Positions 45 through 57,338 of a stretch of 64,000 bases of DNA are shown here, one piece after another. This DNA comes from Candidatus Woesearchaeota archaeon (GTDB lineage Archaea; Nanobdellota; Nanobdellia; Woesearchaeales; 21-14-0-10-32-9), in contig JAIPET010000003.1 of the NCBI GenBank assembly GCA_021736975.1, positions 1,452 through 65,451 of the forward strand, in the 5' to 3' direction. The position numbers and the translations under genes were made by a program. Every line of letters begins with the position of its first letter. Positions within the stretch are counted from its first letter, which is position 1. The notes beneath the pieces were generated by a model. That model did no database searches and was not told where the DNA came from. It worked only from the letters and a program-made list of their open reading frames with translations.

Positions 45-3000
45 ATGTCTTCAGAAGGACAAACTAATAGAATAAAATATGAAATAATTAACACAAGACA
101 ATATAAAAATCTAAACACTAAAGATCAAACTATAAATTTAGCACAAACGCAAACACAAACAAAATATGATCTTCTAATGAATTTAAATCAAACAATAGAA
201 GAAAATACAACAATAATGTTAGAAGAAACACAAATTCCAGAAATAAATACAGAATTAAGAATAGAAAAATTACAAAAACAAGGTCAAAAAATAAATGGTG
301 AAGAAATATTAAAAAGTTATGCGATGGACTTATCAAATTTAGACTTTACAAAAGGAACATTTACGACAAAAGCAAAAGGAAAACAACTTTTCAAATGTAA
401 AGACTGGAATTATTCATCTCAACAATGCTTAGGAACTTGGAAAAAAATAAAAGACTTAATACCAGGCCAAGAATATGAAATAATAATAACTCCAGAAGAT
501 CCAGGATATATAGAAACAACCTTAACAATATTAAATGTAAAAAGTAATCCATTACTAAACAATTACTGGACAATAAATTTTACAACAATAGGAAAAGAAA
601 ATATAATAATAAAACCTATTTCACAAACAACCTGGAGAAAACCAAATGAAAACAATCCTGCAGACTTAGAATTTACAACCTTAACATGCGGTCAAAAAAC
701 AATAATACCTACATGGAATAAAAACACAATTGACATTGAAAATTATGAATGTAATGAAACATCACAACTAAAAATATTTGAATTAACAGAAGGAAAACAC
801 ACAATGTATTTCCAATTTGGAAATGATTCTGCCCTAGCATTTAATGACGCATCAGGATGGTACAACCAATTATGGGAAAAATGCAAAGATATAAACATAA
901 CAAACTTTGCAGGTCAAATATTATATAATTACACAACACTTCTAAAAATTCCTTATGATTCACAAATGCAATCAGATTATGAAGATTTAAGATTTACAGA
1001 TCAAGCATGCGGACAAGGAGGACAAGAAATAGGATACGATATAGAAACATACAATTCCACAGAAGCAATGACTTGGGTAAGAATACCAACACTAAATACA
1101 TCAGGAACAACAATAAGTATGTATTACTCAAACCCAACAGCACTAAACGGAGAAAATGAAGATGATGCATGGAGATCAGATTATGGAATAGTATATCATA
1201 TGGATTCTTTAGGATTGGATTCTTCAGGAAATGGAAATGATAGAACCGCAGATGATGGAACGCCAACATCAACAAATACAATTTTAGGATATGGTATAAC
1301 ATTTAACGGTTCAACAGCATGGGACATGACGAACATAGGCTACTGGGAATCTTCATTTAGTGAAAGAACACATGAAGTAATATTTGAAACTTCAAATAAT
1401 GTTTCAGGAAGACAAACAATCTTAGCCGAAGGAGGAGGAACAAACGGATTAATGCTATATATTTTAGATGGAATCATATATTCAAGATGGTGGTCTGAAG
1501 GAGGCGCAGTAAATATGGGTGGAGCATTACTAAACACAACAATTTCTCCAAACAGTTTATACTATTTAACCATGACATATAATAATGAGACAAATTATAC
1601 TTTATACATAAATAAAACAAGAATATCTTTCAATTACTCAACAGACATAATAGATGCTCATGGAGGAAATGGAGGAATAGGATATACAGGACCAGACTCA
1701 AAAGACTTTGAAGATACTGCAGGTCAAGGATATTATTTTAAAGGAACAATACACGAATTAAGAGCTCAAGATAAAGAACTTACCTGGGCAGAAATAAATC
1801 AAACATACGAAAATATATTTAATAACACAAATAGTTTTACAATAGGTTCCGCACAAGAAGTACCAACAAATAAAACAGATATTACAATAAACATATATGA
1901 TATGTTAAATAATTCAGATTACTCAGATGACATATTATTAAATTCAATAACATATTATAATGAATCAATAAACGGAGGAAAAATAGACTTTGGACGAATA
2001 ACACAAATTGATTCAGATAACACATATAGAATAGAAATAGTATTAAATATGAAAACAGACTTTGAAATAGATGCAGACTACTTCAAAGAAACATTCATAA
2101 AAACAAAAAATAATGTTAGTTTCTCAACACAAAATACAACAACACAACCAGAATTTATAATAGGAACAAGTTACGTACCAACAGATGGATATTGGACTCA
2201 AGACATATTTTATTCACAAACAGTAAACTCAAATTACACAAATTCTGCAGTAGGAGAATTCGGATATATTGATGGGGATCCAGACATAGTTGCAATATAT
2301 AATAATGATTTGAAAGTTTATCAAACACCACAAGATACATATTATGGAGGAGATTGGACAGAATATGTAGCTAACACAGATGTAGGCACAATAAGTTTTG
2401 ATAACAAAGTAGTTCTTGCAGATATAGATAGAGATGGATATTTAGATGCATTTGTAGCCAATGATAATGAAGATATCAGGGCATATCAAAATCCAAAAGA
2501 TCCATTTGGAACAACATGGACAGAAAGAATGATAGATTCAAGTTTAAATGCAAGAGACGTAACTGCATTAGCTGCAGGAGATTTAGATAATGACGGATGG
2601 ATAGATGTATGTGGTGGAATAGAAGCAAGAGATGACATATACTGTTTTCAAAATGATGGAACTCCGTGGGATGCAGATTGGGTACAAAGCACAATAGAAT
2701 TAGCTGCGGGAGGAGATCTTGAAGATATAGTTATAGCAGACATAAATAGAGATGGTTTACAAGATATTATTGCTTCAGTACAAGGAGTAAACGATATAAC
2801 TTGGTGGGAAAATGATGGAACTCCATGGGACGGTGTGAGCTGGACTCCAAGAGACATAGATACAAATACAGGACAACTCTCAAATGTAGTGAAAGTTGTT
2901 GATTTAGATTTAGATGGAGATTTAGACGTAGTACAAGGAGATGATGGAGGAGATATAGCAATATATGAAAACAACGGATCTAATCCACCAGGCTTCACAA

Positions 3001-6000
3001 AATATTTAGCATATGACGGACCAGGAGGAGAAGATATAGTTGGATTAGCAATCGCAGATATAAATGATGACGGAAAACCAGATATAATATATGGTGCAGA
3101 ATCCGCAAATGATGTAGAATATTTAGAAAACTCAGGAACACCATGGTCAACAGGATGGACATCAGTACCAATATCAACAAATACAGGATCAACACCTTGG
3201 ACAGTAGAAATAGCAGACATAGATAAAAATGGATATGTAGATGTAATCGTAGGAAATAACGGTGCAGAAATAATTGCATATTTTAATAACGGCACACCAT
3301 CAGCAGGAGAATGGAATTCAAACATTTTAGAATCAGCAGCTGCAGGATCTGTATATTCAATAGCAATAGGAGATTTAGATAAAGATAACTATAGTAACAT
3401 ATTAGAATTTTATTATAATGCAACAGAAAATTTTGAAAATGGAACAGGAACATTTTCAGGACAAACAACATTATCACAAGGAAATCACACATTTAATTTT
3501 ATAATAACTCCAGATAATGATTTCGGAATAAATAAACCAGTAAATACATCTTTTTTCATAGGATCAGAACAATATGATGGTTGGAAAATATACGAAGAAA
3601 AAGCTGCATTAGCAGATATTTATCCAATAAGAATAACTTGGGAAGTGCTAGTTAATTATGTAGATGTAATTCCTCCAAACATATCCTTTATAGAACCACC
3701 AACACCAATAAATGGTTTAATAACAGAAAACAAAAACCAAAATTTTCTAGCAACAATAAATGAAACAAATCTAAAAGAACTAAAATTTGAATTTAATAAT
3801 ATAAATACGACACAATACTCAGAAAATTTAGTTTTAATGATGAATTTAGATAATGAATCAAGTTTAACAGAAAATAATAATTTTGTAAAAGACTTATCAA
3901 AATATTCAAATGATGGAGATCCACAAGGACAAGCGTCACCAACAACAGGAGTATACGGGGGCGCATATACATTTGATGGCTCAGGAGATTACATACAAAT
4001 AGAATCAGATTCAACACTAGATATACAAAATTTTACATTCACAACATGGTTCAAAACAGGACCAAGCACATCTTGGACATCATATCCCTCAATCATAATG
4101 AGAGGAGATGGAGGAGCAGGAAATGAATTATACATAGGATTCTCAGCATCAACACAAGACACAATAGTTGTAATTCTTGATGGATCCATACAAAACTTTG
4201 ATGGAAATGTAGATTTAATAGATCAACAATGGCATCATTTAACAGTAACATATGATAGTACAACAATATCAGTGTATATAGATGGGGAACAATATGCAAA
4301 CAATGTCTCTTTAACAAGAACATTAAATTTTGGAGGAAGATTATATTTAGGACTAGATACAGATGCACTAGATGCGAGTTTTGGAAACTATTGGAACGGA
4401 CAACTAGACGAAATAAGACTATGGAATACAACATTTAATCCGACAACAATAAATGAATGGTACACTTCAAACCTTAAAAAATACAATGATGACGAATGGA
4501 ATTTAACAGTAAATAAAACTAATTTAAATTACGGAACATATGATTATAAAATTTACGCAACAGATCATATAGACCAAACAATAAATACAACATTAAGAAA
4601 TCTAACAATAAGCCCAGATACAACATATCCTCAAATAAATTTTATATATCCAACTCCAGAAAATGCAACAGGTACATATGAAACAAATCTAAATATAAGA
4701 ACAAACATAACTGAAGAAAATATACTTTCTTTAATATATAATTGGAATGGCACAAATATAACAATTTACAACAATAGTTTAGTTCTTCAATATAATTATG
4801 ATAAAATAACAGAACTAGGAGAAAATGATTCATTTATTGTAGATACTAGTATTTACAAAAATAATGGAACTCTAAAAAATGATGCAAGATACGAACTACA
4901 AGGAAAATATAATAGAGGTGTTTACTTTGATGGAACCGGAGACTACGTAGAAATATTATCAGATACAGCTCTTGATGTTCAAGATTTTACATATATGACT
5001 TGGTTTAAAACAGGACCAAACACATCTTGGACATCATATCCTTCATTTTTTATGAGAGGAGATAGCGGAACTTCAAACGAATTATTTATAGCAATAAATG
5101 ATACAGATAATGATTCAATAGCGGTAATGCTAGATAACACAATATACTCTACAGGATCAGGAACAAATTTAATAGATCAACAATGGCATCATTTAGCAGT
5201 AACATATGATAGTTCAACAATTAAAGTCTATCTAGATGGAGAACAATATGGAAATAATATATCAGCAGTAAAAACATTAAATTTTGGAACGAGCAACGCA
5301 TGGATAGGGACAGATACAGATACATATAATGGGAACTTTGGAAATTACTGGAATGGAACATTTGACGAATCAAGACTTTGGAATGTATCTTTAGATGCTC
5401 AAAGTATTAACAAAGCATATAATTCAAATTTAGAAAAAACAGGAAATCAAACTTGGATATTAAACACATATGAAAATAATTTAGGAATAGGAACATACAC
5501 ATTTCAAACATTTATAGAAGATACAGGAACAAACACAAACACAACAGGAGAATATAGTGTAAACTTATTTGAAACAGGAGTATTAGATTATGATGAAGCA
5601 GCAGATATATCGATAGCAGCACTTGATGATTTTACAGTAGCAATAGCATGGATAGATCAAAATTCATACAACGCATCATTTGAAATATGGCAAGCAAATA
5701 AAACAAGACTAGTAGACAAAACAACATTTGAATTTGATGGAAATGCAAATAGCAGAATATCAATAACGCCAATAAGTTCAACACAATTTGCAATAGGAAT
5801 AATAGATGGACCTGAAAGTGACTTAGACATATGGATATATGATGTAGATGGAAACGAAATATTATCTAGAACAGAATTAGACAACAATTTAGCAAGTTTT
5901 ACAGATGTATCCTTAACACCATTAACAGACAGATTTATAGTATGTAATGCAAATGATGCAGATAACGACGCAGATTATAGAATAATATCTTTAGCAGGAA

Positions 6001-9000
6001 CTGATTTGTATGGAGAACAATTTGTAGATGGAAATATGAATCCTGAAGCATTATCGCAAAATTTAATATCTTGTTCATCAATAGGAGATGGCGACTGGGT
6101 ATACTCTTGGTATGATGACGGATCAAACGATATATCTTTTGCAATAGTTAATGAAACAAACACTATAGAAATAACAGAAACAGATTTAGATCTTGATGTT
6201 GGAGAAACAGCACAAGTAGCAATGACCGGACTTACAGATAAAAAATTTGCGATAGCATATTACGATTCAAATGATGACAACATATATTTATCAATAAGAC
6301 AACACTCGCCATATGGATTAGTGACTGTTCTTGATAAAACACTAGATACAAATTTAGGAGGAGATACAAAATTAGCATTATCAGAAATAAACAAACAAGG
6401 AATAAGCGAATTCGTAGTTGCATGGCAAAAAAATGGAGCAATAACAACAGAAATATATGACGACATAGGTAATATAGTAACGCCAAAATATAATATAACC
6501 TTAAACTCGAATATAAATTATCAATTAATAGGACTTGAAAGCTATCATTCACCAACAACAACAGGATTATGCTCAGGAACTTTTGTAATAGGATATACAA
6601 ATGATGAAAATAAAACAGTATTTTCATTTGAAAAAACTGATGGGACAGAATGGGATGGAGGAAGTTGTGATAATACGCCTCCAAATATTACTTTTGTAGA
6701 TCCAACATTACCAAATGGAACTGTAAGTAATTTAACCACAGTATATACAAATATTTCCATAAACGAATCAGAACTAGGACTTTTTAAATTTCAATGGGAA
6801 GGACAAAATACAACAATATACAACGAATCACTAATAATAGGATTTAATTTTGATAAAGAAACATCAATAGGGGAAACTAACACTAATTTACACGACATAA
6901 GCATATATCAAAATAATGGAACTTTAAATGGCGGAGAAGGAGATGAATACACAGCAAATGGAAAACATAATGGAGCATACGACTTAGACGGATTTGATGA
7001 TTTAATAGAAACAAACGACATATCAGAAATAGATAGTGCAGAAGAATTAACAATAAGTGCATGGATAAAAGTAGATGATTTAAATGACGATGGAACAATA
7101 ATAGCAAAAGATGACTTTGTATCAAACCCACTTCTTTTATTATATAGAGATGAAACAGGAAAAGGAGGAAGAACAGACGCATTTACTGCAATAATAAGTG
7201 ATGGAACAACTAATGCAACTTTAACAACTACAACAAGTTCTTCTAATGATAATAATTGGCATCATATAGCTATGACATTTAAAGCAGGATCAACACAAGG
7301 ATTGAGAATTTATATAGATGGACAAGAAGATCCAAATAGTAATGTTTCAACAATAGGAATATCAAATTTAAATTCAAACTCATACACATTAAGAATTGGA
7401 GCACCACACGTAACACTAAATAAAAATTTAGACGGATCAATAGATGAATTAATGATATATAATAGAGAATTAACATCTCAAGAAATTACAGAATTATATA
7501 AAGGATATTTAAAAAAATATGATACGGACAAATACTATTATTTTTCAAATCATTCAAATTTAATATATGATACTTACTCATTTAAAGGATATTCAGAAGA
7601 CATAATAGGAAATCCATCAGAAACAGATTTAAGATCAACAATACTAGCACCAGATCCATTTGCACCAGAAATAACCTTTGTACCTCCAACATATTCTGAC
7701 GGCGCATTAACAACAGACAGATTCGTACCAATAAACGTATCGATAAAAGAAACAAACCTGGCGAATGTATTAATAGAATGGAATAATACCAATCAAACAC
7801 TAATGGACAATTCATTAGTTTTAATATATAATTTTGACAACATAAGTGACTTGGGAGAAAATAATTCATATGTAAAAGATAATTCACCAAATAATTTACA
7901 AGGAACAATATATGGCACTCCTTATTTTAACAATTCAGGAAAATACTATGGATCAATAAAAACAGGAACAGGAAATTTTGTAAGAAATGATTATGTATCA
8001 GAATATATATCGGAACAAAATTTTACAATATTAATGTGGACAAAAAAATCATCATCAACACCACAACAATTTATATTAGGAATAAATTCAAATAACGGAG
8101 TAACAAATAGATTATTATTAGGTCATCAAAATGCACAAACAAACATGTCATTATATGATGAAAATGAAGGATGGGTAACAACAAATGCAAACATAAATGA
8201 CGATGAATGGCATCAAATAGGTTTAAGATATGACGTGACAACCGGAAATATGTCATTAATATACGATGGACAATTTATTCAAAATTATACGAGTTCAGTA
8301 AATATCGCAACAGATGATAGATTTGTGCTAGGCGCAGAATACGACGGCGCAAGCGCAGGAGATTACTGGCAAGGGCACATAGATGAATTAAAAGTATTTT
8401 CAAGAAGTTTAACAAAAGAAGAAATACAATATAATTATAATTCAAATCTAAATAGATTAAATTCATCCTATTGGATCTTATATTCAAATCAAACAAATTT
8501 AACTTTAGGAACATATTCATATAAAATATCAGCATCAGACGTACCGACAAGTTCAACAATATCAGAAACAAGAACAATAACAATATTTGACAAATACATA
8601 ATAGATTATAATCAAGCAATAGATATAGAAATGACTCCTCTTGACAACACAACAATAGTATATGCTTGGATTGATGCATCAACAAACTATGCAAATTTTG
8701 AAATATTTGATACAAATGGAACAAGAATAATAGATGAAATAACAATAGATACAGATGGAGGACCATATAGTAGAATATCTGTAGCTGCAATAAATACAAA
8801 TAAATTTGTAATCGCATTAGGAGATGATCCGGACGATGATTTAGCGTATTGGATATATGATAGAGATGGAATCCTAGTAAGTGCAGAATCAATAATAGAT
8901 ACAAACATAGGCGTAAATTTTGATTTATCTATAGCTGAATTAGGAGATAGATTTGTAATTTGTAATGCGAATGATAACGATAATGATGCAGATTTTAGAA

Positions 9001-20435: not shown

Positions 20436-20438
20436 GGA

Positions 20439-21236: not shown

Positions 21237-21411
21237 GTCTCTATCAAGAATTACTTTTTGTCCTCTTATTTCTAGGATTTTAGTTTTTTTGTTCTTGTTC
21301 CATAATTTTAGTAAAAACTATTATTTATTTAAAATTACCTCTATTTATCTTCCATAGTGAAGTTAATTTTCTGCTATTCATTCAAAACAAACATTTATAT
21401 ACTAGATATTC

Positions 21412-21465
21412 AAAAACCATATTAATACATAAAAATATGGTTTTTTTCCTGAAAGGCCTTTCAGG
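21412..21465. promoter_or_regulatory. Two adjacent perfect palindromes in the divergent intergenic region (candidate operator sites or bidirectional hairpins)
   Basis: First: AAAAACCATATT (21412-21423), 10-nt spacer, AATATGGTTTTT (21434-21445). Second: the 18-nt palindrome CCTGAAAGG|CCTTTCAGG (21448-21465). Both lie about 45-95 nt upstream of the RHH gene start and downstream of the ORF6N gene 5' end. Confidence 0.3.
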
Positions 21466-21507: not shown

Positions 21508-21657
21508 ATGGGTAAAAAGAAAATTACAATGACAGTGGATGACGACGTCTTCTTAGAGTTCAAAAGATATTGTAGAATGAACGCCATGAAAGTCTCTAGC
21601 AAAGTAGAACTCATGATGAAAAACTTCAATAAAGATCTTCAAGAAAATCAAAAATAA
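21508..21657 (+). CDS. Ribbon-helix-helix (CopG/Arc/MetJ-like) small DNA-binding protein, 49 aa; not in the supplied ORF track
   Basis: Translation: MGKKKITMTVDDDVFLEFKRYCRMNAMKVSSKVELMMKNFNKDLQENQK. It shows a beta-strand (ITMTVD), helix (DVFLEFKRYCRMN) and helix (KVSSKVELMMKNF) pattern. TAA at 21655-21657 sits 1 nt before the ATG of giant ORF2 at 21659. Confidence 0.6.
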   Translation: MGKKKITMTVDDDVFLEFKRYCRMNAMKVSSKVELMMKNFNKDLQENQK

Positions 21658-21658
21658 A

Positions 21659-36600: not shown

Positions 36601-38761
36601 TGTTACAACTGATGGTATTGATACTGTATTAAACTTTGGAAAAACATTTAGTAACGTTCCAACAGTTTGGACAACAGCACAAACATATAATCAAGGAGGA
36701 AATATTTCATCAATAACATGGGTAGAAGATACAGCAACAAAAACAATAAGTAGTGCCCCTTTAATTGGATGTGTTCATCAAGGAATAGCTAATGTTTGTG
36801 AACCCGGACAACCTGATGAAACAATAGGATATATTGCAATAGACCCTTTAAATGTTAATATATCAAGTTATCAAGAAGGAAATTCAGACATTAGTAATAG
36901 TGAGTGGACTACAGCAGTATTCTCGCCAGTATATACAAATCCTAGAGTTATGGTTACAGAAAATGATGATGACGGCGGAGAAGATCCAGAATATCCTTGG
37001 GCAAAAAACGTAGTAAGTACTGGGATGGATTTTAGATTCTGTGAACAAGATGCTTCAGATGTATGTAATTCTCATACAAGTGAAGTAGTAAATTGGTTTG
37101 CATTAGAAGATGGAGATATACTAGCACCATTATTAGCAACAAATGATGTAACGATATATCAAGAAAACGAAGAAATATTAGTTTTAACAATACAAAATCA
37201 AACAAACCAAACAGGACAATGGAATTGGGATATAGATACATTGCAATTTGAATATTATAATTATTCAATTGTCTCAAAAGCTAGTTATTCAGGATACAAT
37301 GATAATTATGATTATGCTCATTTTGAATTAATACCAGATACAACTGCACCGAACGTAACTTTAATAATTCCAACAATAAATTATATAATATCAAATAATT
37401 CGTTAATATTTAATTGGAGTGCAAATGATTACCAAAGAAACCAAACATGCAATTTAACTATAGATGGAACAAATAATCAAACAAATATATTTCAAAATAA
37501 TGATGAAATAATATCAAGAAATATAAATAATATAATAGAAGGAAAACATAATTGGTCTGTAAACTGCGTAGATGTTTTAGGAAACTACGGTCCTTCAGAA
37601 ACAAGAAATTTCACAATAGATTTAACACCACCAACAATACAAATAATAAATCCAATAATAGAATATAATACTACAAACACTACAATAAATTTTACATTTA
37701 ACGTTACAGATCAATTCGCAGAGCAAACAAATTGTTCAATATATTTTTATGGAATAAATATAACGCAAAATGCAACAATACAAAATGCAACAAATTCAGG
37801 AATAAATGCTAATATTTCATATGGACGTTATGAATGGCTAGTAAAATGTTTTGAACCATCAGGAAATCAAGCAACATCAAATCCAAGAAACATCACTATA
37901 CTAAGCCCTCCAACAGACATATACATAAAAATAAATCAAAATAAAAGTACTACAATAAACTGGACAAATATACCGGAAGCAGAATCATATAATGTGTATA
38001 TAACAAACAATTTCACAGCAGGATTTCCTTTAACACCCAATGTAAGCGGAATAATAACTAATGAATTCACAGATCAAACAGCAAATACAACAATACAAAG
38101 ATACTATAAAATAAGTACTCAAAGAAATACAATAGAAGCTTCATCAAATGAATATGTAGGAAAATATGAATCAGAACTTCAAACAGGATATAATATGATA
38201 AGTTCACCATTAACATACTCGGATTTAGAATTAGAAAATGGAACAAATAATGCATATACTTTTAATCCAAACAATCAATGTATACAATCTTTATGGAAAT
38301 ATGAATCAGGAACTTTCAAAAGATCAGACTGGCTCACAGATAAATTTGTACCTGCATCAGGAAGTGAAGATTTCATATCAATAAATAGTACAGAAGGATA
38401 CTGGATAGAAACAAACCAAACATGTAATATAACATACATAGGAAAAATAAAAGAAATAAATTCAACAATATCTTTAAACACAGGACCAAACTTAGTATCT
38501 TGGTATACAATAAATGAAAAAACACTTCCAACAAATTATCAAACACCAATAATAAATACAAATCCAACTAATTCAGTTCAAGCAATTAATAGATTTAATG
38601 CAATAACACAAGAATTTGAATTGACAATACATTATGTAATAACTGGAACTGCATGGGGTTGGTGGCCATCATTTAATAATCAAGAGTTCCTATCTTTAAA
38701 ACCAACAGAAGGATATTATTTTGATGCAAATCAAACAAATATTTGGGAGCATGAACCATGA
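21659..38761 (+). CDS. Giant multidomain surface/adhesin-like protein, 5700 aa, with N-terminal signal/anchor
   Basis: 17.1-kb open frame. N-terminus MIKRTSKRTLKIIMIMFLTVAIAISTNA is signal-peptide-like. Three DUF2341-like starts: SWWNSNYNSRKQINI near 22069, SWWNTTWQKRKAIKL near 32026, PWWNESWGRRQKILL near 35966. LamG-like region after the first. ConA/DUF1080-like jelly roll about 24570-25170. Two FN3-like units about 26380-26680 and 29565-29850. Many ~95-aa Ig-like Cys-pair modules. Two copies of a ~282-aa Cys-loop beta-sandwich module at 28171-29020 and 36283-37125. Stop TGA at 38759-38761; no C-terminal TM segment. Confidence 0.9.
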   Translation: MIKRTSKRTLKIIMIMFLTVAIAISTNALTTDKTIYELGETVIINTNTTNYTLEIQSSNQKYKLINNEDSIIYFTPTIIGTHTITLNNNELLNFEVIQSTQKQPTSQIKPIKEKSISLTSLIKKEDLPISILSIEDSWWNSNYNSRKQINITNNDVTNTITNKYTANITINTQTLITNNKLQANCDDLRIIWINSTTPTEIDRTITNCNQTNSVVEFKIQKNISASSNSDKYYIYYENPSAINPPNNKSNIYYLWEDFEDQTHPFSNGALSPTVTTGSAKNGVYGLEGNGGGGYRRAVVPENLPRGFTIESWVYSHGDGSNADLPGISYGMQTSELNGYQTILDWRSATAGSADMQIRENYASGSPLATSTANTVSKYQWYYVTTTWKENGDIQATIYNSSMSLWGTMNVNDPTYTTGYYGINAYKSGQWDDVKVKLFMSTQPTYDLLTEEQRNPLTVSLNSPENNSVKDILTFNISCTATTEYELINITLYINSTGTWQANQTKSATGNNSQKNFEITLENLNSYKYNCLAIDNESNQAFANENNTFTVNTFFDFTPEINLSYPQENYTNNTQNIINLTLNASVSDDVNLVNCSLYHNYSGTWNLNQTNTVTGNLNTTSFQLNNIGNKSFIWNIGCYDDANQLNFAENNRTIILDNENPQISINEPTNQIYYINNITINITTNEPLNYCNYTLDNWLTNNLTNQISSTEYQATENNLAEGTYTIKTSCEDIHGNINNTEQTIFTINHKKPNVTLTNPTNNYLNNTNQYVNLTFSATATDGNELMNCSLYHNYSGTWILNQTNLVTGISNTTNFQLNNLTNKIFIWNIECSDKNNEKAFATSNRSIILDINPPGLTINSPNETYQDPSPLIIINITDQAETAWYNINNQNNITICNNCTGIQTTYKNLPEGNYQINIYVNDTNANLNSKSEFFTINQNLNYYETYDDQSSQYVLNDSLIQNGQLQFTGTGGETLLNESFDDNNYLDGNPVTWNFVNQGVGDSTPEWLIAGGILSESGNCHDDSTDLGRDTTAKGCYAYPGNYEWTDMNITARIRASDDDGMGLMFRYVDQNNYYRYRFSGTRDFRKLDKFVGGVWSELDVDYLVDGGFTQNNWHIMTITIIGDQIEGYLNGVKVLNATDSSITNGSVALYSWGMDTGSVGGDFDYINVTDLTQGYSSTTFYSEFINTTNTKTLISNITWNENNTDQNNNITIQLTTDQQNWCQATNNQGINTGTCSNFTLNNSLQYKVLFQKNNSGIIGLNDINISWQEDTENPTVEIINPIQNQILTNNYTINISINDSQSGINTAEYIIKYQNQTIAQNWSPLILNQGTINQGYWSSNITTINFQEDTYILIINATDFVGRYNDSKNISFFVDNIGPSLTLLQPTDNQTIELESILTIAVNITDNLQISTNATIEYPNTTTTQINLINTIGNTYEANFTMPIIQGRYNITINTNNSNGRTNQTTTYIQGKDLQNPQVTIINPAPLTTIEQLTNIDINVTINDQTNTTVQANITQPNLHDDQISLTQINSTHYSIEYTNTSQIGIYNITIIATDENNNQNVTETISFQIQDLTKPTAFNLLSPTNATINTTIQPMLQWEQTTEANFKNYTINIYEDQARTILNATYYTTTITNTSITIDALNSDATYYWDVTAHDLYGNNRTSNQIYSYTTDNTNPQINLQSPNNTIIRINTTTINYTPIDTNLKNCTLYLNDTGVFAPNQTTLNPINNQINQFNITLQDNSYDWNINCYDQANQNNFAIQNNTFTINTKPTKINLMSPQNNSIDSDGIITIQYNLSHIENVTNCTLNFQETQYQITSINQNLTNNYQLNNVEAGQYNYNLTCEDLSGYINTSQSKIINVIRTESFSGNTSNMSQESPENLINLILEKPNKGKINFTETINLSGGANLNQLVAINQNFISVDTITEPRLNKSASLTFYNLSYQFTPRILINNQICSECQIINYASNTLIMNVTHFTNYSTEANTQLIIWDQDDDVAGNNHVSIGDQVQFYANYTNKTSGSSIFGAGAYCEIIFDDTNLINMTYNATTKIYEYNRTFDAQSIETWNVSCIASAQNYESLNSTDNVEIRGPAPIIENAFFNETTARADDYILVNATITDSSGNDTVTSVIYSMQYPNGTKQNYSMTQSIDYDKTHSSTNILSEESSSTPQSDRRTIGETGEINLTSMTWQLVELTNTYNNTPVIVAIPTTQNAPASFDDSYMIPTISMVNETHFNITTCLDNGTSTCTPSDVEETIHYFAFDPQASNQFSWIDVGTVSTTTGGADTTVTFGKTFSNTPDIFTTAQTYNQNGNIAAIAWAEDTATKTTSSALIIGCVHQGTSDACATGQPDETMGYIAIDSANINITSWQTGSASISASTWTAAAFSPTYAAPRVMVTQNDDNGAQDPEYAWARSLTGSGMQYRYCEADGADYCDSHTGEVVNWFALEQGNITARGASTDTEANKSYEYYYDVDNKNVVNITNMNITIEISAYSNLGSISKSNNDPDLIIEIASTDNSSWSEIGTLGVSGIGNYTLNITNQSILTAWITQTNRDIRIKPINLDFYDDTNQDYINWSGIYLQMTYDAESSNWYHIFTDTYQLNEYNLTDIYVSDEDLFTNHKLFNDISFSIYTTVLDSFNLTNPTNNTLSADRQPVLNWEQTSAYKFKNYTIQIDNNSDFSSPEQIIIKTVLTENTSTTSNLPADQTSYWRVIAYNEYNNATYSNQIFRYETDNTNPIINLTTPSQNQIFYTNTIIFNYTPNDLHLKNCTLYTDVNGTWFANETNTTPINNQPNYFNKTINDGYYTWNVECYDEVNQKSFSENNNSFIIDTIPPTINLETPQNNTLNETTNNILFEYNVTDILTSIQNCEMILDEDIKDTDISITENTTQNFTIFVANGNHNWSINCTDDNGQVGSSDIYNISVNVASESDPPIIVLNEPLENTYSQLNNITFNYTPSDATGIENCSLIIDGEINQTNTSLTSEETSTFQINEMPDAQYSWKIECYDNNTQAKGNSVTRILTIDTINPIIQLNLPDNDSFYTNLNLFFNYTPTDTNLDYCELFHDDTGIFELKQTNNSPISGIENLFNQTLQENTYLWNIRCVDLSGRASFAIQNKTVKLDANSPKYSNISINPESSTNYTEEQIYEFNITINETFLDTLYIQHNFTGTLTNYSVTTNQGNTYLYNYTDIFPGKYIYKWFMNDSLNRQNETSIFNYQINISEPNMTLTLNGQQNDITINETQSVTIISTLNEPTNKYYELYQNGILINYGTSPLLNITTYNNAGIYQIITNITGSENYTQKSINYTITVNDVDSPIITLIYPEHNSTVGTSNITFQYNVTDSTNITSCELYVDSSLKDTDTNITKNTLQTFNWNVADGDHDYYIRCYDEYSNTGTSSTYDFSVQDSTQINIIINTTKQTYQEGEIIEINSFTGDLFGSPLNTSLELDLIYTNTTTSSASWWNTTWQKRKAIKLNNPDSSASLKTVHVNITNLTGYLTDCYKELRIIKNTSTGPELIEHEIISGDNTTFCQLKFNADLSANAIDEINYHVYYDNNTPVTDPGFTVTDITFNIQRGEITGSTTSITDTMNQVNQANSFIILSSKASSTAPNGNQFTPKFDSDTQISFDRYSAVAGTASWQVIESSDYFVQANTTTLSTSQVATTVNISSINTDKTIIIPYARANDASASNNNRGYVYATILNETQIQLNRSSTGAAASVYYQVIEFPETYTVRSGTLSFTTTSATDTVPQVNTSRSMLFFSYGINGDTGLDANHIRGKFNSGTQIEFNRVVNQGTAYVSWYVVEFPESFVTQSASSTITADTGVLLTNPIVLNKTFHVQSRASSGGGTTYTNAMVKTNLTNTTHIYLDKETTSNINDIDWMLIEKTTSTTSTNTSIGNTEELIQKNVSITGLDGFADLIYWQTINEYFGNYSVVGLASRFAFTNSTNYATFELTNDTTPPIITINYPGSIENISNSSTLFNFTTYDYQLNSTCNITIDGSINQSNIFTENNLNELVTTNNFTEGIHYWNITCWDKYNNSNTTNTRNFTTKLESPDVQLIIPTNNQILTQSLVYFNYTPTDTTLNNCSLYGNFTGDFEINQTNNIPINGLQNSFNLTLQDNIYLWNIKCVDNVSQESYATTNYTFKLDTTAPQINLLNPTNNTLNTTTNNILFEYSTTDTLSEISYCSVILDGEIKDTDITISESATQNFTIFVANGEHNWSINCTDSNGLESSSNKYNLSMNVLFESDPPVIVLNYPLEYYYTNITNITFNYTPSDASDVENCSLLINGEINQTNTSPINLIPNYFELTNIPENNYTWQIQCYDNETFALGYSIQSDFTIDLTNPYINLTSPNDYSFYTSSNVEFNYTPLDTNIENCSLYGNFLGSFELQNTNTTPISNQTNTFTEIINDGTYLWNVKCYDKANRNSFSENNYTVYVDANAPNLLNSQNNPTSPAEYELLRTYYFNITIDEQFKDTVWIEHNFSGTMQNYTVTNNISNTFMYNYTDIAVGNYYYKWYANDSLGRIGNTSTTNYEITKKQGSVGLLLNGLASNVTINESNPLNVTGYTIEPSQGYIILYQDGDMINNGTDYLENITSYSQPGSYNLTVFYNETQNYTASSQTYFVNVVDVSNPTVTLIYPANESYVGSLDINFRYDVTDNVGIDNCKLYVDDILEDTDTSIENNAENQFPYTFSGDGNYSWYVTCTDTSSNSMTTQTNNFTVIETTEMIVNTSITKQIYQKGEIINALTKVTDQFELELENANLTLNLIIGNTTIPWWNESWGRRQKILLEETTGQNQTKETINITIDTQTIILQNLSESNCIDYRFIDSNLNELEYKLISGCNTTQTTFFIKTNLTAGTNNTIYVYYNNSQATNTSNENLKSTIGETGAININSFTGSIKNFNNQYAYQPIILATPVTQNGPTSTDDSYNIPTLFDTGNNYMNISLCQDNGLVTCSNPGATETVHYFVFDVNRTNKYSWIEVGTVNVTTDGIDTVLNFGKTFSNVPTVWTTAQTYNQGGNISSITWVEDTATKTISSAPLIGCVHQGIANVCEPGQPDETIGYIAIDPLNVNISSYQEGNSDISNSEWTTAVFSPVYTNPRVMVTENDDDGGEDPEYPWAKNVVSTGMDFRFCEQDASDVCNSHTSEVVNWFALEDGDILAPLLATNDVTIYQENEEILVLTIQNQTNQTGQWNWDIDTLQFEYYNYSIVSKASYSGYNDNYDYAHFELIPDTTAPNVTLIIPTINYIISNNSLIFNWSANDYQRNQTCNLTIDGTNNQTNIFQNNDEIISRNINNIIEGKHNWSVNCVDVLGNYGPSETRNFTIDLTPPTIQIINPIIEYNTTNTTINFTFNVTDQFAEQTNCSIYFYGINITQNATIQNATNSGINANISYGRYEWLVKCFEPSGNQATSNPRNITILSPPTDIYIKINQNKSTTINWTNIPEAESYNVYITNNFTAGFPLTPNVSGIITNEFTDQTANTTIQRYYKISTQRNTIEASSNEYVGKYESELQTGYNMISSPLTYSDLELENGTNNAYTFNPNNQCIQSLWKYESGTFKRSDWLTDKFVPASGSEDFISINSTEGYWIETNQTCNITYIGKIKEINSTISLNTGPNLVSWYTINEKTLPTNYQTPIINTNPTNSVQAINRFNAITQEFELTIHYVITGTAWGWWPSFNNQEFLSLKPTEGYYFDANQTNIWEHEP
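29855..32020 (+). repeat. Intragenic segmental duplication copy A (about 2.2 kb, Ig-like module array) in giant ORF2
   Basis: Runs NPIINLTTPSQNQ ... PPTINLETPQNNTLNETTNNILFEYNVTD ... ESDPPIIVLNEPLE ... DANSPKYSNISINPESS ... VDSPIITLIYPEHNS ... up to SWWNTTW. Colinear module by module with copy B. Confidence 0.7.
33800..35965 (+). repeat. Intragenic segmental duplication copy B (about 2.2 kb) in giant ORF2
   Basis: Runs SPDVQLIIPTNNQ ... APQINLLNPTNNTLNTTTNNILFEYSTTD ... ESDPPVIVLNYPLE ... DANAPNLLNSQNNPTSP ... VSNPTVTLIYPANES ... up to PWWNESW. Long identical peptides are shared with copy A, e.g. TQNFTIFVANG(N/E)HNWSINCTD. Confidence 0.7.
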
Positions 38762-40350
38762 AAACACATAAACTAAAAATAAAAAATGTAACTTTTGCGA
38801 TTATCCAAATATTGTTATTAATACTATTATCTTTTTCAGTATTTGCAATTCCAGTTCCTAAAGGAATAGATGGGACAATATACAGATTAGATGGTTTAAC
38901 ACAAGTAATAAAAGGAATACCTATAACAATAACAAATTTAGAAACAGGAGAAATAAAAAATATTGTTACGGGAAAAGGAACTTTTGGAAGATATTCAACA
39001 ACATTAGAATGGGTAGAAGGAACAAAAATACAAATAAAAGCAAGCAATCCAATAAATGAAATAAAAAGAAATACAACTATTACAGGAATAATACACAAAT
39101 TTGATTTAATATTGAATATGAGTATACCTAATTTACCTCCAGAAATTATAACTGAGAATTTAGGACAAATTAATGAAGAATATTTATTTGAAAAACAAAT
39201 TGAAATATTTGACTGGAATGATGATAAAATAATTTTTTCATTACAAACAAAACCAGAAGGAATGAAAATAACTTCTCAAGGAAAAATAAGTTGGACTCCA
39301 ACAAAATATCAATCAGGAATACACGAAATAACCATTGTTGCAAATGATGGCGAATTAATTACAACTAAAACATTTCAATTAATAGTGATGAATACAATAA
39401 ATGAAACAAATAACATTAATCAAACTGAGATTAATCCAACAAAAATTAATAACTTTGGAAATAGAGCTGGAAATACAAATTTAGCTTTAGAAACTCAATC
39501 TTTAACATTTTTAGGAAGTTTACCCAAATCAAACTTAACAACAAATAAAACAAATATTTCAAAAGAAAATAAACATTTGCAAATAATAAAAAATCCAAAA
39601 ATCACAAATCAAAAAACAGTATATGAATATATACAAACAAATCAACACAAAGGAAAAACTGAAATAAAAATACTTAAAAATTGGTTAAAAGAAAAAGGAA
39701 TAACAGTTAAAGATATAATTATCGAAGAATTAAATGGAAACAAATGGAAAGAACAAAAAATCAATCCTATTTATGATGATGGAAAAAACATAGTTTTTGA
39801 AACAAATTTAAAACAAAATAAATTATATGCAATAACAATAAAAGAAGGAGTGGAGATATTAGAAAATAAAGAACAAATAACAAATATAAATCCAACAAGA
39901 AAAATTCATGGAAAAATAATAATTCAAGGAGTGGATATTTCAAAAAATCCTAAAATAACAATAAATACAACAAATCAAATTGTAGATGCACTAGTAGAAA
40001 AAACTGACAAAAAAACAATATTTTATCAAGCAACTTTAAAAGGAAATCCAGAACATGCAACAATAAAAATTAACTATGCAAATAAAGAAATAGTGCAGCA
40101 AATAAATTTATATCAAGAAATAACTACGCACGATATGACTATAAAAAATAATGCTTTTAATTTAATTACAGGATTTGTATCAGGTCAAGGAGAAGTAGAA
40201 ACCAACCAAATAATTCACATATTAGCACTTTTCGCATTTACTATGCTACTGGGAACAGCAATTTACTTTAATAAAAAAATTAACAAAAAAAATAAAGAAA
40301 TTAAAGATGATGAAAAAAATAAATTTAATGAACAAAGTAAAAAAAATTAA
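38758..40350 (+). CDS. Bitopic surface protein (N-terminal signal/TM, Ig-like 'putative Ig/He_PIG-type' domain, C-terminal TM plus Lys-rich tail), 530 aa
   Basis: ATGA overlap with the giant ORF2 stop. N-terminal hydrophobic segment VTFAIIQILLLILLSFSVFAIP. Motif KITSQGKISWTPTKYQSGIHEITIVANDG. C-terminal IIHILALFAFTMLLGTAIYF followed by NKKINKKNK. Confidence 0.85.
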   Translation: MKTHKLKIKNVTFAIIQILLLILLSFSVFAIPVPKGIDGTIYRLDGLTQVIKGIPITITNLETGEIKNIVTGKGTFGRYSTTLEWVEGTKIQIKASNPINEIKRNTTITGIIHKFDLILNMSIPNLPPEIITENLGQINEEYLFEKQIEIFDWNDDKIIFSLQTKPEGMKITSQGKISWTPTKYQSGIHEITIVANDGELITTKTFQLIVMNTINETNNINQTEINPTKINNFGNRAGNTNLALETQSLTFLGSLPKSNLTTNKTNISKENKHLQIIKNPKITNQKTVYEYIQTNQHKGKTEIKILKNWLKEKGITVKDIIIEELNGNKWKEQKINPIYDDGKNIVFETNLKQNKLYAITIKEGVEILENKEQITNINPTRKIHGKIIIQGVDISKNPKITINTTNQIVDALVEKTDKKTIFYQATLKGNPEHATIKINYANKEIVQQINLYQEITTHDMTIKNNAFNLITGFVSGQGEVETNQIIHILALFAFTMLLGTAIYFNKKINKKNKEIKDDEKNKFNEQSKKN

Positions 40351-40376
40351 TATTGAAAAGATTAAGAATATTTAAA

Positions 40377-42860
40377 ATGATAAATAAAAAAGATAAATTA
40401 AACATAGTAAAAAAATCAAAGAAAAAAATATCTTACAGTATTTTTATATTTGTATTGCTAATAATTATTTCTATATCAATAAATGCACAAGTACCTCAAA
40501 CGATAAATATTGCTGGAAAAATATTAAAACAAGATTTATCTGGAGCAGAAAATGGACAAATAGTATATATTTATAATTTTAATGAGTTTATAACAGAAAT
40601 AACACAAGTATATGCTCCGCCAGTTCCTTCATTAAAAGGATCATATTCTGCAACAATTACAGGATCAATTGGAGATATAATAAGGGCAAGAGCATATAAT
40701 TATACACATTACGGGGAACTGAACAAAACAATTACAGATACAACAACAATTATGGGTGTGACTATGAATCAAACAAGAACTCCGGAAGCAAATATAAATA
40801 TAACATATCCTTTAAACAATTCTTTACAAAATACTTCGAGCTCATTTAATTTAACTGCTAATATAACTATGCTAGGAAATTCAGGAACAAATTGTCAAGC
40901 AACAATAATGATTCAAGACACAAATATACTAAATTTAAAATCAGGAGAATTACAAACAAATAATTTAGGTGCTTTTACATTAGGCCAAACAAAAAATACT
41001 ACATTTCAACTTGAAGTACTTACAGTTGGATTAACAACAATATCCGTAAATTCAACATGCTCAGAAAGTTTAACAAATTTTGAAAATTTAAATAATTACA
41101 CTATCTTCATATCAACACAAGATTTTTCAGAACCAATAATAACAATAATATCTCCGGATAATCAAACAGAAAATAGTTCTACGAATACAATAAATATAAA
41201 ATATAATGTTACAGATGATTCATTAATAACACAATGTAGATTATACATAAATGAAACGTTAAACAAAACAGAAAATTCAATAACAAAAGATATAGAACAA
41301 ATAATAACTACAACATTACCAAATGGAATTTATAATTATACAATAAGTTGTACGGATCAATATTCTAATATAGGTCAAAGCGAAACAAGAACAATAAACA
41401 TATCAGTACATTCTCCAGAAATAATAATTATGAGTCCAGATACAAATATAATGTTAAATGCTGGAAGTACAACAATAATAGAATGTAATGCGACCGCACA
41501 AGATCTAAATGGGAATACACAAATTCAAGGAATGAATATGACTTTATATAGTGAAACAACAAATCATTTAGCAGCAGATAATGAAAGAAATAAATATACA
41601 AACAATTCTTGTTTAGAAATATCTGCTTTTGGAAATCAAAAAAATTATAGTTGTACATTTGAATTAGAATATTATGCAATAAATGGTACTTGGACTTGCA
41701 ATGCAACAACAATAGATCAATATGGATATACAGGAGCAAATAATTCAAACTTAACAATTTATCCTTTATATGCAATAAACACATCGAAAACATTAATTGA
41801 TTATGGAGATGTTCAAGCAGGAAAAGAAACTTCAGAAGAAAATATAACTTTATACAATATTGGAAATCAACAAATATCAATAAATGCAAAAGGATATGGT
41901 GGAACTAATCCAATTACAGGAAATAATATGGCTATGATGTGTGATTTAGGACAAAACATATCTATTGAAAAACACAAATATGCAACAATACAAGGACAAT
42001 CATATTCTTCTAAAACATCTCTTTCATCAATAAATCAAGCAACAGGAATAACAATAAATAATCAAATAGCTCCAGGATTATTACCTGAACAAGATATGTA
42101 TTGGCAAATAAAAACAGATACTGGATCAGGAGTTCAATGTAATGGAACAATAGTATTGACTGCAACAATACAAAATACAGGCAATGTAAGAATAGAACCG
42201 ACAATAAACCTAAAAATATTTGATCAAGAAAAAAAAGAAATTGTTAAAGAAATAAAATACGCGTATACTTCTGAAATATTACCAACTTTAAGAGAAAGGA
42301 TAGAAGCACAATTAGATAATGAACTGCCAATAGGACAATACTGGGTAGAGATGTCTGCAGAAGAATGTAGTGGAACTGCAACAAAAACGTTTTCAGTACT
42401 TGATAAAGGAGGAATAAGTGATAAAGGAGAATTCTTAAGAATAGAAAACAAACCTTGGGCAGAAACACAAGAAACAATACCTATAATTGCATATTTTAAA
42501 AATTACGGCGATCGACAAGTTTCTGCACAATTTAAAGGAATAATAGAAAGTAATAACAAAATATTACAAACTGTAGAATCAGAAAAATTAATAGCATCAC
42601 CAGGACAAACAATAGAACTTCAAACTTTTTTCAAACCACAAATTCAAGGACAATATCAAGTAAAAGGAAAAATAATATATAATGACAAATTAACATTTGA
42701 AAAAGGAAGTATTATAAATGTAATCCAGACAACAGTAGGAACAAAAGAAAATGAAGATTTCTTATGGAGCATAATATTGAGTGTTATAATAATAATTATA
42801 GGTATTATGTTTTTTATGATATTAAATAAGAAAAAAAAACATAAAAAATTTAAGTACTAA
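40377..42860 (+). CDS. Bitopic surface protein sharing the giant-protein Ig-like Cys-pair module; C-terminal TM anchor (827 aa from the ATG; an upstream TTG at 40353 is possible)
   Basis: N-terminal TM ISYSIFIFVLLIIISISINA. Module EPIITIISPDNQTENSSTNTINIKYNVTDDSLITQCRLYINE...YNYTISCTDQYSNIGQSETRTINI matches the giant-protein module pattern. C-terminal FLWSIILSVIIIIIGIMFFMIL plus NKKKKHKKFKY. The TTG start lies 2 nt after the previous stop. Confidence 0.85.
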   Translation: MINKKDKLNIVKKSKKKISYSIFIFVLLIIISISINAQVPQTINIAGKILKQDLSGAENGQIVYIYNFNEFITEITQVYAPPVPSLKGSYSATITGSIGDIIRARAYNYTHYGELNKTITDTTTIMGVTMNQTRTPEANINITYPLNNSLQNTSSSFNLTANITMLGNSGTNCQATIMIQDTNILNLKSGELQTNNLGAFTLGQTKNTTFQLEVLTVGLTTISVNSTCSESLTNFENLNNYTIFISTQDFSEPIITIISPDNQTENSSTNTINIKYNVTDDSLITQCRLYINETLNKTENSITKDIEQIITTTLPNGIYNYTISCTDQYSNIGQSETRTINISVHSPEIIIMSPDTNIMLNAGSTTIIECNATAQDLNGNTQIQGMNMTLYSETTNHLAADNERNKYTNNSCLEISAFGNQKNYSCTFELEYYAINGTWTCNATTIDQYGYTGANNSNLTIYPLYAINTSKTLIDYGDVQAGKETSEENITLYNIGNQQISINAKGYGGTNPITGNNMAMMCDLGQNISIEKHKYATIQGQSYSSKTSLSSINQATGITINNQIAPGLLPEQDMYWQIKTDTGSGVQCNGTIVLTATIQNTGNVRIEPTINLKIFDQEKKEIVKEIKYAYTSEILPTLRERIEAQLDNELPIGQYWVEMSAEECSGTATKTFSVLDKGGISDKGEFLRIENKPWAETQETIPIIAYFKNYGDRQVSAQFKGIIESNNKILQTVESEKLIASPGQTIELQTFFKPQIQGQYQVKGKIIYNDKLTFEKGSIINVIQTTVGTKENEDFLWSIILSVIIIIIGIMFFMILNKKKKHKKFKY

Positions 42861-42881
42861 AAATAAAAAAAGAGAATAAGG

Positions 42882-43283
42882 ATGAAAAAAACAATAATTT
42901 TAATAATGATTTTAATATTGATATTTTTAGCAGGCTGCACATCAACAAAATACATTTGTTATAATGGTCTTGAAACAAAAAATATCAAAGAATGTACTGT
43001 ATATCCAACCATAACACTAAATGAAATAAAAGCATCAAGAGCCGTAGACAATTACGGAAGAGGATATGTCGTAGGAAAAGATATAACTTTTACACGAGTA
43101 AATACGTATGTTCAAGGAGGAGATTGGTATTCAGATGTATTATTCTCAGAAAGAAATACAGGATCTGTTGCGGAAGTAAAACTTAAAATAGATGGAAGAA
43201 CATCATCTATAACTTGCATAGATGGATGCGAAGCAATAGGAATACAAACACCAACAGATAATGAAACTATAAAAAAAGATTGA
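42882..43283 (+). CDS. Small secreted lipoprotein-like protein (133 aa)
   Basis: N-terminus MKKTIILIMILILIFLAGC has a lipobox-like LAGC. The mature part has 3 further Cys. GAGAATAAGG lies upstream of the ATG. Confidence 0.7.
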   Translation: MKKTIILIMILILIFLAGCTSTKYICYNGLETKNIKECTVYPTITLNEIKASRAVDNYGRGYVVGKDITFTRVNTYVQGGDWYSDVLFSERNTGSVAEVKLKIDGRTSSITCIDGCEAIGIQTPTDNETIKKD

Positions 43284-57337: not shown

Positions 57338-57338
57338 T

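Follow-up and report, generated by a model that had tools for sequence, protein, structure and literature searches.

What do two giant genes lying close together on an archaeal contig contribute to the cell surface, and how are their products held there? The question is raised by a stretch of 64,000 nucleotides from a Candidatus Woesearchaeota archaeon (GenBank assembly GCA_021736975.1, contig JAIPET010000003.1, positions 1,452 to 65,451, forward strand), whose whole length is called the window here. As an earlier note on this DNA had stated, the window carries two giant open reading frames (ORFs) on the same strand; in the window ORF list these are the plus-strand G1 (45..20435, 6796 amino acids, aa) and G2 (21659..38761, 5700 aa). 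G2 is followed by two smaller membrane proteins, A1 and A2, and by a lipoprotein-like gene. We read the locus as probably an envelope gene cluster of a DPANN archaeon, in which two giant secreted and glycosylated mosaics would act as multivalent binding fibres beside smaller membrane-anchored proteins. G2 contains a domain related to the self-cleaving domain of Nup98, which suggests a built-in break point in the fibre. The features of G2 on which the argument leans are as follows.

21659..38761, plus strand: G2, gene for a giant surface protein of 5700 aa; Sec-type leader at the N-terminus (21659-21745).
24659..25123, plus strand: 3-keto-disaccharide-hydrolase/DUF1080-type jelly roll (Pfam score 35 bits, cutoff 26.8).
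27251..27604, plus strand: Nup98/S59-type autopeptidase homologue, aa 1865-1982, with the predicted scissile His-Phe/Thr at 27581-27589.
27644..27913, plus strand: cysteine-paired immunoglobulin-like (Cys-Ig) domain 'FYANYTNKTSG', in homologues always after the Nup98-like module.
28181..29014, plus strand: triple H-type-lectin-like module, copy 1 (its homologue P0008 scores above the H_lectin cutoff).
31853..33238, plus strand: DUF2341-like segment and fourfold repeat block, homologous to G1 13578-15014.
36101-36277, plus strand: DUF2341 domain, aa 4815-4873 (Pfam PF10102, 33.6 bits against a cutoff of 23.4).
36296..37114, plus strand: triple H-type-lectin-like module, copy 2, right after the DUF2341 domain at 36101-36277.

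The earlier note had seen neither a catalytic motif nor a protease part in the giants, a statement that G2 aa 1865-1982 overturns. On profile evidence this segment is a homologue of the Nup98-type (S59) autopeptidase, and its site, H1975-F1976-T1977, is intact. The first hint was a weak Pfam Nucleoporin2/S59 match at about aa 1870-1945 in a tile scan. A homologue search with the module region yielded 26 surface proteins of DPANN archaea, of which three have a precomputed PF04096 match, and 19 of the 21 sequences in a module-only alignment matched PF04096 individually (best E 4e-8). Among all PDB sequences, the top 18 matches of the module profile were exclusively the autoproteolytic domains of Nup98, Nup116 and Nup145 (best E 3.1e-6). 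The module and the Nup98 autoproteolytic domain have the motifs 'G.I.F...NL...LD..V.I' and 'LN+.A.(V/L)TL' in common, and the terminal strand of the module, 'F.V.(H)F(S/T).Y', is aligned to the catalytic 'FKVSHF(S/A)KY' of Nup98. A conserved Cys pair is present as well, and an AlphaFold2 model made with the module alignment reached a predicted local distance difference test score (pLDDT) of 86-97 over the module. A single-sequence PDB search with G2 1800-2110 gave noise only. No publication on archaeal homologues of the Nup98 autoproteolytic domain turned up in the literature consulted; this does not prove novelty, and the Pfam matches can be seen in public annotation.

The second element of the argument is the domain that ends G1, the giant whose features are listed here.

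3..20435, plus strand: G1, gene for a giant surface protein of 6796 aa counted from the ATG at 45; the frame is open up to window base 3.
204..638, plus strand: N-terminal conserved domain 'LFKCKDWNY..Q.C.G.W', common to giant ORFs of Woesearchaeota and Micrarchaeota metagenome-assembled genomes (MAGs).
897..1904, plus strand: DUF2341-like segment and first LamG (44% identity to P0002, which carries PF10102; Laminin_G_3).
2112..3374, plus strand: FG-GAP beta-propeller of 7 repeats (Pfam FG-GAP_3, 7 stretches, E 1.5e-30).
3462..9584, plus strand: four LamG/pentraxin-like units (~320 aa) alternating with two propeller-like units (~370 aa) (Laminin_G_3 E 6e-89, Pentaxin E 8e-19, self-BLAST).
9972..11924, plus strand: unique beta-rich region of ~650 aa, unmatched in Pfam and retained by the orthologue on contig L011.
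12150..19520, plus strand: 19 Ig-like Cys-pair modules in arrays, with the DUF2341-like segment plus fourfold repeat block and a CARDB domain set between them.
13578-15014, plus strand: DUF2341-like segment and fourfold (~85 aa) repeat block, homologous to G2 31853..33238.
17508-17822, plus strand: first CARDB domain (Pfam).
19530..19859, plus strand: second CARDB domain (Pfam CARDB, 47 bits).
19836..20432, plus strand: terminal domain, a member of an unnamed family of at least 1582 clusters.

A hidden Markov model (HMM) of seven DPANN proteins, with G1 left out, aligns end to end with the last 190 aa of G1 (22 bits; E 9e-9 when two sequences were searched). The family, defined by alignment A3 (G1 aa 6598-6796 and P0014-P0179), is ~185 aa long and is marked by the motifs 'SWQGYYG...', 'GFD...(Y/H)DF(E/Q)' and a terminal 'YYF(Y/F).E(I/L)', with 13 invariant columns; the G1 copy is without the two Cys of its family. 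When the joint alignment was run exhaustively through HMMER, at least 1582 representative clusters (50% identity) were counted with E <= 1e-3; 1029 reach E <= 1e-10. The best 150 family members all have the domain at their extreme C-terminus. Of these 150, about two-thirds are ~240-aa proteins made of a signal peptide and the terminal domain only, and otherwise the domain ends proteins of 600-2400 aa. Exactly one Nup98-like module occurs in 36 of the 43 family members of 300-999 aa and in all nine of 1000 aa or more (45/52 together), and its site lies 308-335 aa from the C-terminus (median 321). By sequence comparison, a conserved C-terminal cassette of Nup98-like module, Cys-Ig and terminal domain thus stands behind variable ectodomains. 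In our window the cassette is split, with the internal Nup98-like module and Cys-Ig in G2 and the terminal domain only in G1.

A gene triad was observed in two unrelated contigs, L007 (6784-11890) and L009 (6089-11881). Its first gene is a small ORF (160-182 aa), its second encodes 894-1092 aa without a Pfam match, and its third encodes a protein of ~628 aa in which Ig, Nup98-like module, Cys-Ig and terminal domain follow one another in this order. The small ORF of the L007 triad has faint helix-turn-helix matches, and 7 kb upstream on L007 there is a gene for a T2SSE-type ATPase.

Does G2 then cut itself? The site tripeptide in the 45 module-bearing members of the terminal-domain family reads HFS in 20, HFT in 5, GFS in 13, SFS in 6 and VFN in 1. 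Self-cleavage of G2 between F1976 and T1977 appears quite possible from its intact site, with a chance that we would place slightly below even. It would yield fragments of ~1976 and 3724 aa, which would stay joined non-covalently, the junction being a break point sensitive to force like that of SEA, SEAL, GAIN and MAIN domains. Where the His has been lost, as in many members, the module may be purely structural, as in the non-cleaving Nup116. In the relatives P0026-P0031 the Nup98-like module is tether-proximal, standing before a Ser/Gly/Thr linker that is mostly followed by a transmembrane (TM) segment and a Lys-rich tail.

The module resembles the domain of Nup98, Nup145N and Nup116 (S59, PF04096) in its profile homology and in the HF(S/T) site, which G2 and 25 of 45 relatives retain. 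Unlike that domain it is archaeal, extracellular and placed within adhesin-like proteins, carries the conserved Cys pair, has lost the His in many members, and has its cleavage predicted. Among microbial surface proteins the closest comparisons are the bacterial SEAL domains (PMC10556640) and the microbial GAIN-like MAIN domains (bioRxiv 10.64898/2026.05.12.724683), for both of which the logic of an autoproteolytic tether has experimental backing. The likeness lies in a variable adhesion or enzyme ectodomain with an autoproteolytic beta-domain before the tether, the products being proposed to part under force. In contrast to SEAL and MAIN, the module belongs to the Nup98/S59-type fold family, which is unrelated to SEA or GAIN, is internal in G2 instead of tether-proximal, and has a cleavage that is predicted from sequence. 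A bolder proposal is that the Nup98-type module, Cys-Ig and terminal domain form an undescribed archaeal surface-tether cassette with a self-cleavage joint, a third autoproteolytic tether class after SEAL and MAIN; we offer it tentatively and hold it to be somewhat unlikely. The terminal domain, mostly a stand-alone secreted protein of ~240 aa, would then assemble into or onto the envelope, and cleavage between HF and S/T would provide a force-sensitive joint through which huge adhesive ectodomains could be shed or swapped. The division of the cassette between G2 and G1 in our window would then be a hint of joint action by the two proteins.

The remaining modules of the giants are of binding and spacer types. 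Pfam assigned five Laminin_G_3, one Pentaxin, seven FG-GAP_3, two CARDB and one Big_13 match to G1, with no match in the tile 4490-5000, and assigned DUF2341, 3keto-disac_hyd and Big_7 to G2. A weak Pfam match to a 'PHL domain' was also seen. G2 has, besides its leader, a DUF2341-like segment with LamG, and its C-terminal 290 aa form a region without assigned domain. The mosaic of LamG, FG-GAP, CARDB and DUF2341 described in the earlier note was therefore recovered by Pfam, with the qualification that DUF2341 exceeds its cutoff only at G2 4815-4873. The DUF2341-like segments at the G1 N-terminus and from G1 4512, G2 140 and G2 3399 were assigned through PF10102-carrying homologues or by eye, and the propeller-like units likewise through homologues or by eye. 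The FG-GAP propeller of G1 has six canonical calcium loops, D-x-D/N-x-D/N-G(-x-x-D), at aa 793-1066, as in integrin-alpha-like FG-GAP propellers. Each triple module of G2 consists of three tandem ~95-aa repeats with a Cys pair per repeat and can reasonably be read from its sequence as a single-chain pseudo-trimer of H-type-lectin-like domains; the homologue P0008, 55% identical to the G2 triple module, scores 26.4 bits for H_lectin (PF09458) against a cutoff of 24. The "dozens" of ~95-aa Ig-like Cys-pair modules noted before amount to 49 modules of ~96 aa by an iterated HMM (20 in G1, 28 in G2 and 1 in A2), and 38 of them contain exactly two Cys. N-X-S/T sequons are enriched ~1.9-fold over shuffled expectation (observed/expected: G1 276/151, G2 323/168, A2 30/15.5), which fits heavily N-glycosylated extracellular proteins. 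Within G2, a 2.1-kb duplication over an Ig array (29870-31927 and 33815-35875) retains 66% DNA identity, pointing to growth by segmental duplication and later divergence.

The N-terminus of G1 requires a separate comment. The G1 frame upstream of the ATG at 45 is free of stops to window base 3, and the 'LFKCKDWNY' domain begins ~180 aa after the signal peptide in three relatives and from about residue 54-100 in G1. The window edge therefore probably truncates G1; the 5' end of the gene would lie outside the window, its leader would be of the kind its relatives bear, and the absent leader is probably an artefact. Of the earlier statement that only the second giant has an N-terminal signal, the leader of G2 stands (it appears cleavable by eye after TNA, before L, and G2 has no C-terminal TM segment), and the half concerning G1 falls with the probable truncation. 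An exact 63-nt search of metagenome contigs for the upstream DNA of G1 gave no match. Beyond its end, the architecture of G1 is conserved: L011, a contig of an unrelated JGI metagenome, encodes a colinear orthologue with module order preserved, at 35% identity over G1 3328-4658 and 44% over 4974-6796 (~3300 aa in all).

Two further contigs carry genes related to the N-terminal part of G1. On L006, a Micrarchaeota MAG contig, the G1-type N-terminal domain occurs in a giant ORF (9587-20296, plus; more than 3570 aa), which lies beside and divergent from a 2238-aa ORF (2705-9421, minus). On L014 (10001-19579), P0006, an 861-aa DUF2341 protein related to the G1 N-terminus, adjoins a phage-type integrase and ~25 small unannotated ORFs; one possible reading of this contig is a DPANN virus or an integrated DPANN element that carries an adhesin-like gene.

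Taken together, leaders, lectin and Ig domains, sequons and DPANN homologues point to extracellular binding-type giants of a DPANN-like archaeon, and on this the first reading appears sound. In the mechanism that we propose, the lectin-type modules would bind glycans or glycoproteins on another cell or substrate, the Ig arrays would supply reach, and the terminal domain of G1 would be a module for cell-surface retention or envelope assembly. A1, A2 and the lipoprotein would be co-transcribed with G2 and drawn from a module pool common with the giants. Several points weigh against this reading. The G2 copy of the Nup98-like module scores 23.2 bits against PF04096 (E 8e-5), under the gathering score of 28.4, so that its assignment is family-level evidence, and the top 50 Foldseek matches of a 621-aa multi-domain model (G2 1850-2470) were generic Ig, S-layer, PKD and CARDB structures with no Nup98 among them. 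The site His is replaced in ~45% of family members, and the module of G2 is internal, with no terminal domain behind it, unlike the conserved cassette. Both triple modules remain under the H_lectin cutoff of 24 (16.1 and 13.7 bits). The terminal-domain profile had no match in PDB, Pfam or NCBIfam, and the 2238-aa ORF of L006 is an exception to the C-terminal rule, with the domain near its N-terminus (aa 46-233, E 1e-7). Finally, a dependence of the organism on a host is assumed from its relatives.

Giant surface proteins of DPANN archaea are best known from Nanohaloarchaeota, as SPEARE and related proteins (Hamm et al. 2019, PMC6642349; re-analysis PMC10266531). G1 and G2 are like them in being DPANN surface proteins of more than 5000 aa with LamG and Ig-like adhesion arrays and a proposed role in cell contact. 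SPEARE contains a VirB4/TraG-like ATPase, first read as a restriction endonuclease, together with a serine-protease domain, and a second gene for an ATPase of the VirB4/TraG family lies directly downstream (PMC10266531). Neither giant here has a VirB4/TraG-like ATPase, a subtilase or a coiled-coil tip domain: Pfam searches with whole proteins and tiles at E up to 0.5 returned no ATPase or subtilase family in G1 or G2. No AAA+/VirB4 ATPase gene is adjacent either, as A1, A2, the lipoprotein and NAC genes follow downstream and the only nearby P-loop gene is MinD/ParA-like by reading, at 46632. The locus differs further in belonging to a low-GC, Woesearchaeota-like lineage and in its Nup98-type module, triple H-lectin-like modules, FG-GAP propeller and unnamed terminal domain. 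Membership in SPEARE is rejected for want of an ATPase or protease domain of the SPEARE kind, in agreement with the difference from SPEARE perceived before.

A further comparison is with the LamG/Ig/PKD "cell-adhesion" and large extracellular proteins of DPANN archaea (arCOG07813; PMC7414124, PMC8204110, PMC10266531). The locus has leaders on G2, A1 and A2 (inferred for G1), Laminin_G_3 at E 6e-89 and the 49 Ig-like modules, and the likeness to these adhesins extends to domain vocabulary, predicted extracellular location and strain-specific mosaicism. G1 and G2 differ in being several-fold larger, in the colinear architecture of G1 in a second genome, and in having no murein-transglycosylase domain, unlike the large proteins of Woese- and Pacearchaeota (PMC8204110). 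Giant LamG/Ig surface proteins are thus already documented in DPANN archaea, and the Nup98-type module and the unnamed terminal domain are a distinct added architecture.

Bacterial RTX adhesins of the LapA/Bap/MpIBP type have long arrays of ~100-aa Ig-like spacers, with terminal or interspersed ligand-binding domains and Ca-dependent modules. Such arrays, with ligand-binding domains and Ca-dependent modules, are found here too. In contrast to the bacterial adhesins, the locus has no RTX repeats, no type I secretion signal and no retention module, would depend on archaeal secretion and anchoring, and has unrelated module sequences.

If G1 and G2 are surface fibres, are the smaller proteins encoded beside them their anchors? 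The genes concerned are listed below.

20439..21236, minus strand: ORF6N-domain gene (Pfam ORF6N, 79.8 bits; C-terminal half unassigned), convergent to the G1 stop and outside the surface system.
21508..21657, plus strand: 49-aa ribbon-helix-helix-like ORF, ending 1 nt before the G2 start (ribbon-helix-helix by eye, with a weak DUF6364 match).
38758..40350, plus strand: A1, 530-aa bitopic orphan with leader, beta-rich ectodomain, TM segment and Lys-rich tail; it begins within an ATGA shared with the G2 stop codon.
40353/40377..42860, plus strand: A2, bitopic protein of 835 aa (TTG start) or 827 aa (ATG start), with one Ig-like module at aa 253-348 (835-aa numbering).
42882..43283, plus strand: lipoprotein-like gene, 133 aa, lipobox LAGC.

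The genes around G2 form an operon of ribbon-helix-helix-like ORF, G2, A1, A2 and lipoprotein with gaps of 1, -4, 26 and 21 nt, and the 49-aa ORF is possibly a regulator as its first gene. The local arrangement seen before was confirmed, namely the ATGA overlap of G2 and A1, the start of A2 2 nt (TTG) or 26 nt (ATG) after A1, with the ATG favoured by independent gene calls, and the lipoprotein gene that follows. The same applies to the topology of A1 and A2, both with an N-terminal leader, a C-terminal TM segment and a Lys-rich tail, and to the one giant-type Ig-like module of A2, whose ectodomain is beta-rich. The giants themselves are not in tandem, as had been supposed: the minus-strand ORF6N gene and the 49-aa plus-strand ORF stand between them. 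With this opposite-strand gene and two terminator-like hairpins in between, G1 is outside the transcription unit of G2.

That G1 and G2 are nevertheless the distal parts of one apparatus with A1 and A2 as dedicated membrane anchors is in our judgement improbable. The tight coupling of G2, A1, A2 and the lipoprotein speaks for it, and once its apparently cleavable leader is removed, G2 itself would have no membrane anchor. Overlaps of this kind recur elsewhere: on L011 the stop of the G1 orthologue is overlapped by 4 nt by the gene for P0005, a smaller secreted protein (1024 aa) whose C-terminal part has 40% identity to A2 residues 257-603, and P0004 on contig L013 is likewise overlapped by a neighbour gene. 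The recurring pattern is a giant gene, a translationally coupled smaller secreted mosaic and a further secreted protein. Other findings tell against the anchor model. A1 is an orphan, with no homologue among 5.8 billion proteins beyond A1 itself and none among 181 related proteins, and its single-sequence AlphaFold2 model (pLDDT 42) was unusable. No relatives of A2 were found by a pattern scan of metagenomes, a weak negative because the scan needs exact 8-mer peptides. A2 and P0005 are mosaics of giant-type modules, P0005 also having copies of the G1 N-terminal domain and propeller-like unit and no C-terminal TM segment, and G1 is split from the operon and has its own candidate retention domain. 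The earlier proposal of A1 and A2 as anchors is left unsupported, and shuffled partners together with one orphan agree better with an island of fast-evolving surface proteins than with two dedicated anchors. A physical partnership of the giants with the coupled smaller proteins would be compatible with the island pattern, and the tight operon and the L011 overlap count in favour of some functional coupling.

Two candidates raised by these genes were not upheld. Sorting of A1 and A2 by PGF-CTERM/archaeosortase A was dismissed, as the TM segments and Lys-rich tails are present and no PGF motif is (A1 scores 21.9 bits against NCBIfam PGF_pre_PGF, cutoff 28). The third L011 gene was not established as a G2 orthologue, its similarity being confined to the first 85 aa (29% identity).

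It is conceivable, and to us no more than a minor chance, that the giants are structural envelope or substrate-capture proteins, such as an S-layer-associated sheath or matrix or a means of polysaccharide binding, for which host attachment is not needed. The best Foldseek matches are S-layer and Ig-array proteins (SbsB, SbsC, HPI), and the sole match of the whole giants in a PDB sequence search was one LamG unit to 4qvs, an "S-layer domain-containing protein". Polysaccharide binding fits the DUF1080 and lectin domains, and the downstream neighbours include genes of envelope biogenesis, with two family 2 glycosyltransferases (GT2), an acyltransferase, a DsbA-like thioredoxin-fold protein and two polytopic membrane proteins. 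Against it, the Foldseek matches are generic, with a TM-score of ~0.15, and S-layer proteins are usually much smaller and simpler. Nearly all relatives of the giants belong to DPANN archaea. Cultivated DPANN members are episymbionts (PMC10266531, PMC8204110). Multivalent binding fibres remain the reading that we prefer.

Among these neighbours, a pair of membrane-anchored thioredoxin-fold proteins flanks the GT2 pair (50337-51026 and 54072-54806). The former has a Thioredoxin_4 (DsbA-like) match with no CxxC visible by eye, and the latter has CQNC by eye; they may be relevant to the ~40 disulfide pairs of the Ig-like modules. Two overlapping genes for polytopic membrane proteins, 55928-57352 (minus, 474 aa) and 57339-58844 (minus, 501 aa), lie beside the GT2 and acyltransferase genes and have no Pfam match; their products are possibly GT-C-type glycosyltransferases of envelope glycosylation.

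Both giants and the three genes downstream are genuine coding sequences, and their assembly is sound. At a guanine-plus-cytosine (GC) content of about 30% (~25-33% across the window), a random stop is expected at ~8% of codons (~1 in 12), so that stop-free frames of 5700-6800 codons are not due to chance. A chimeric origin of the giant ORFs from repeats that were collapsed or wrongly joined in assembly, as their strong repetitiveness at the protein level and the break of all three Logan contigs at one point (43406) might suggest, is so improbable that we reject it, since no exact repeat of 31 nt or more occurs anywhere in the window, the protein modules of the giants are just 65-75% identical in DNA, window 28758-43406 (14.6 kb) is matched identically by three independent Logan assemblies from different runs, one 46-kb Logan contig is expected from coordinate arithmetic to cover both giants, the common break falls outside genes in a repeat like a miniature inverted-repeat transposable element (MITE, ~135 bp), and the L011 orthologue of G1 is colinear with unchanged module order.

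43377-43510 and 60468-60600: two intergenic copies of the MITE-like element, ~135 bp, 88% identical, with 11-bp terminal inverted repeats ATATGAAACC...GGTTTCATAT.

The MITE-like element had no Rfam match and an RNA fold z-score of just -2.1, and Rfam and tRNA scans of the window gave no matches. Neighbouring genes assigned by reading are of archaeal type (histone, NAC, MBF1-like, Hjc resolvase). The named relatives of the giant modules are all DPANN (Woesearchaeota, Aenigmarchaeota, Micrarchaeota and Nanoarchaeota), with an unclassified "bacterium" bin as the sole exception. On this sequence evidence the locus is that of a low-GC, Woesearchaeota-like DPANN archaeon.

Giant adhesin-like proteins are the main candidates for the means by which ultra-small DPANN archaea recognise and hold other cells, and hardly any have been dissected outside Nanohaloarchaeota. 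The locus offers a well-assembled giant pair with a full module map, and the second genome, on L011, indicates that the architecture of G1 is conserved and not randomly shuffled. It also provides two testable handles, the Nup98-type self-cleavage site and the unnamed terminal-domain family of at least 1582 clusters, which may explain how such proteins are retained on the cell. If the predicted cleavage is true, force-releasable microbial surface proteins would be extended to archaea by an independent fold, and relatives of the autoproteolytic domain of the nuclear pore would have a place on archaeal cell surfaces, outside any nuclear pore.

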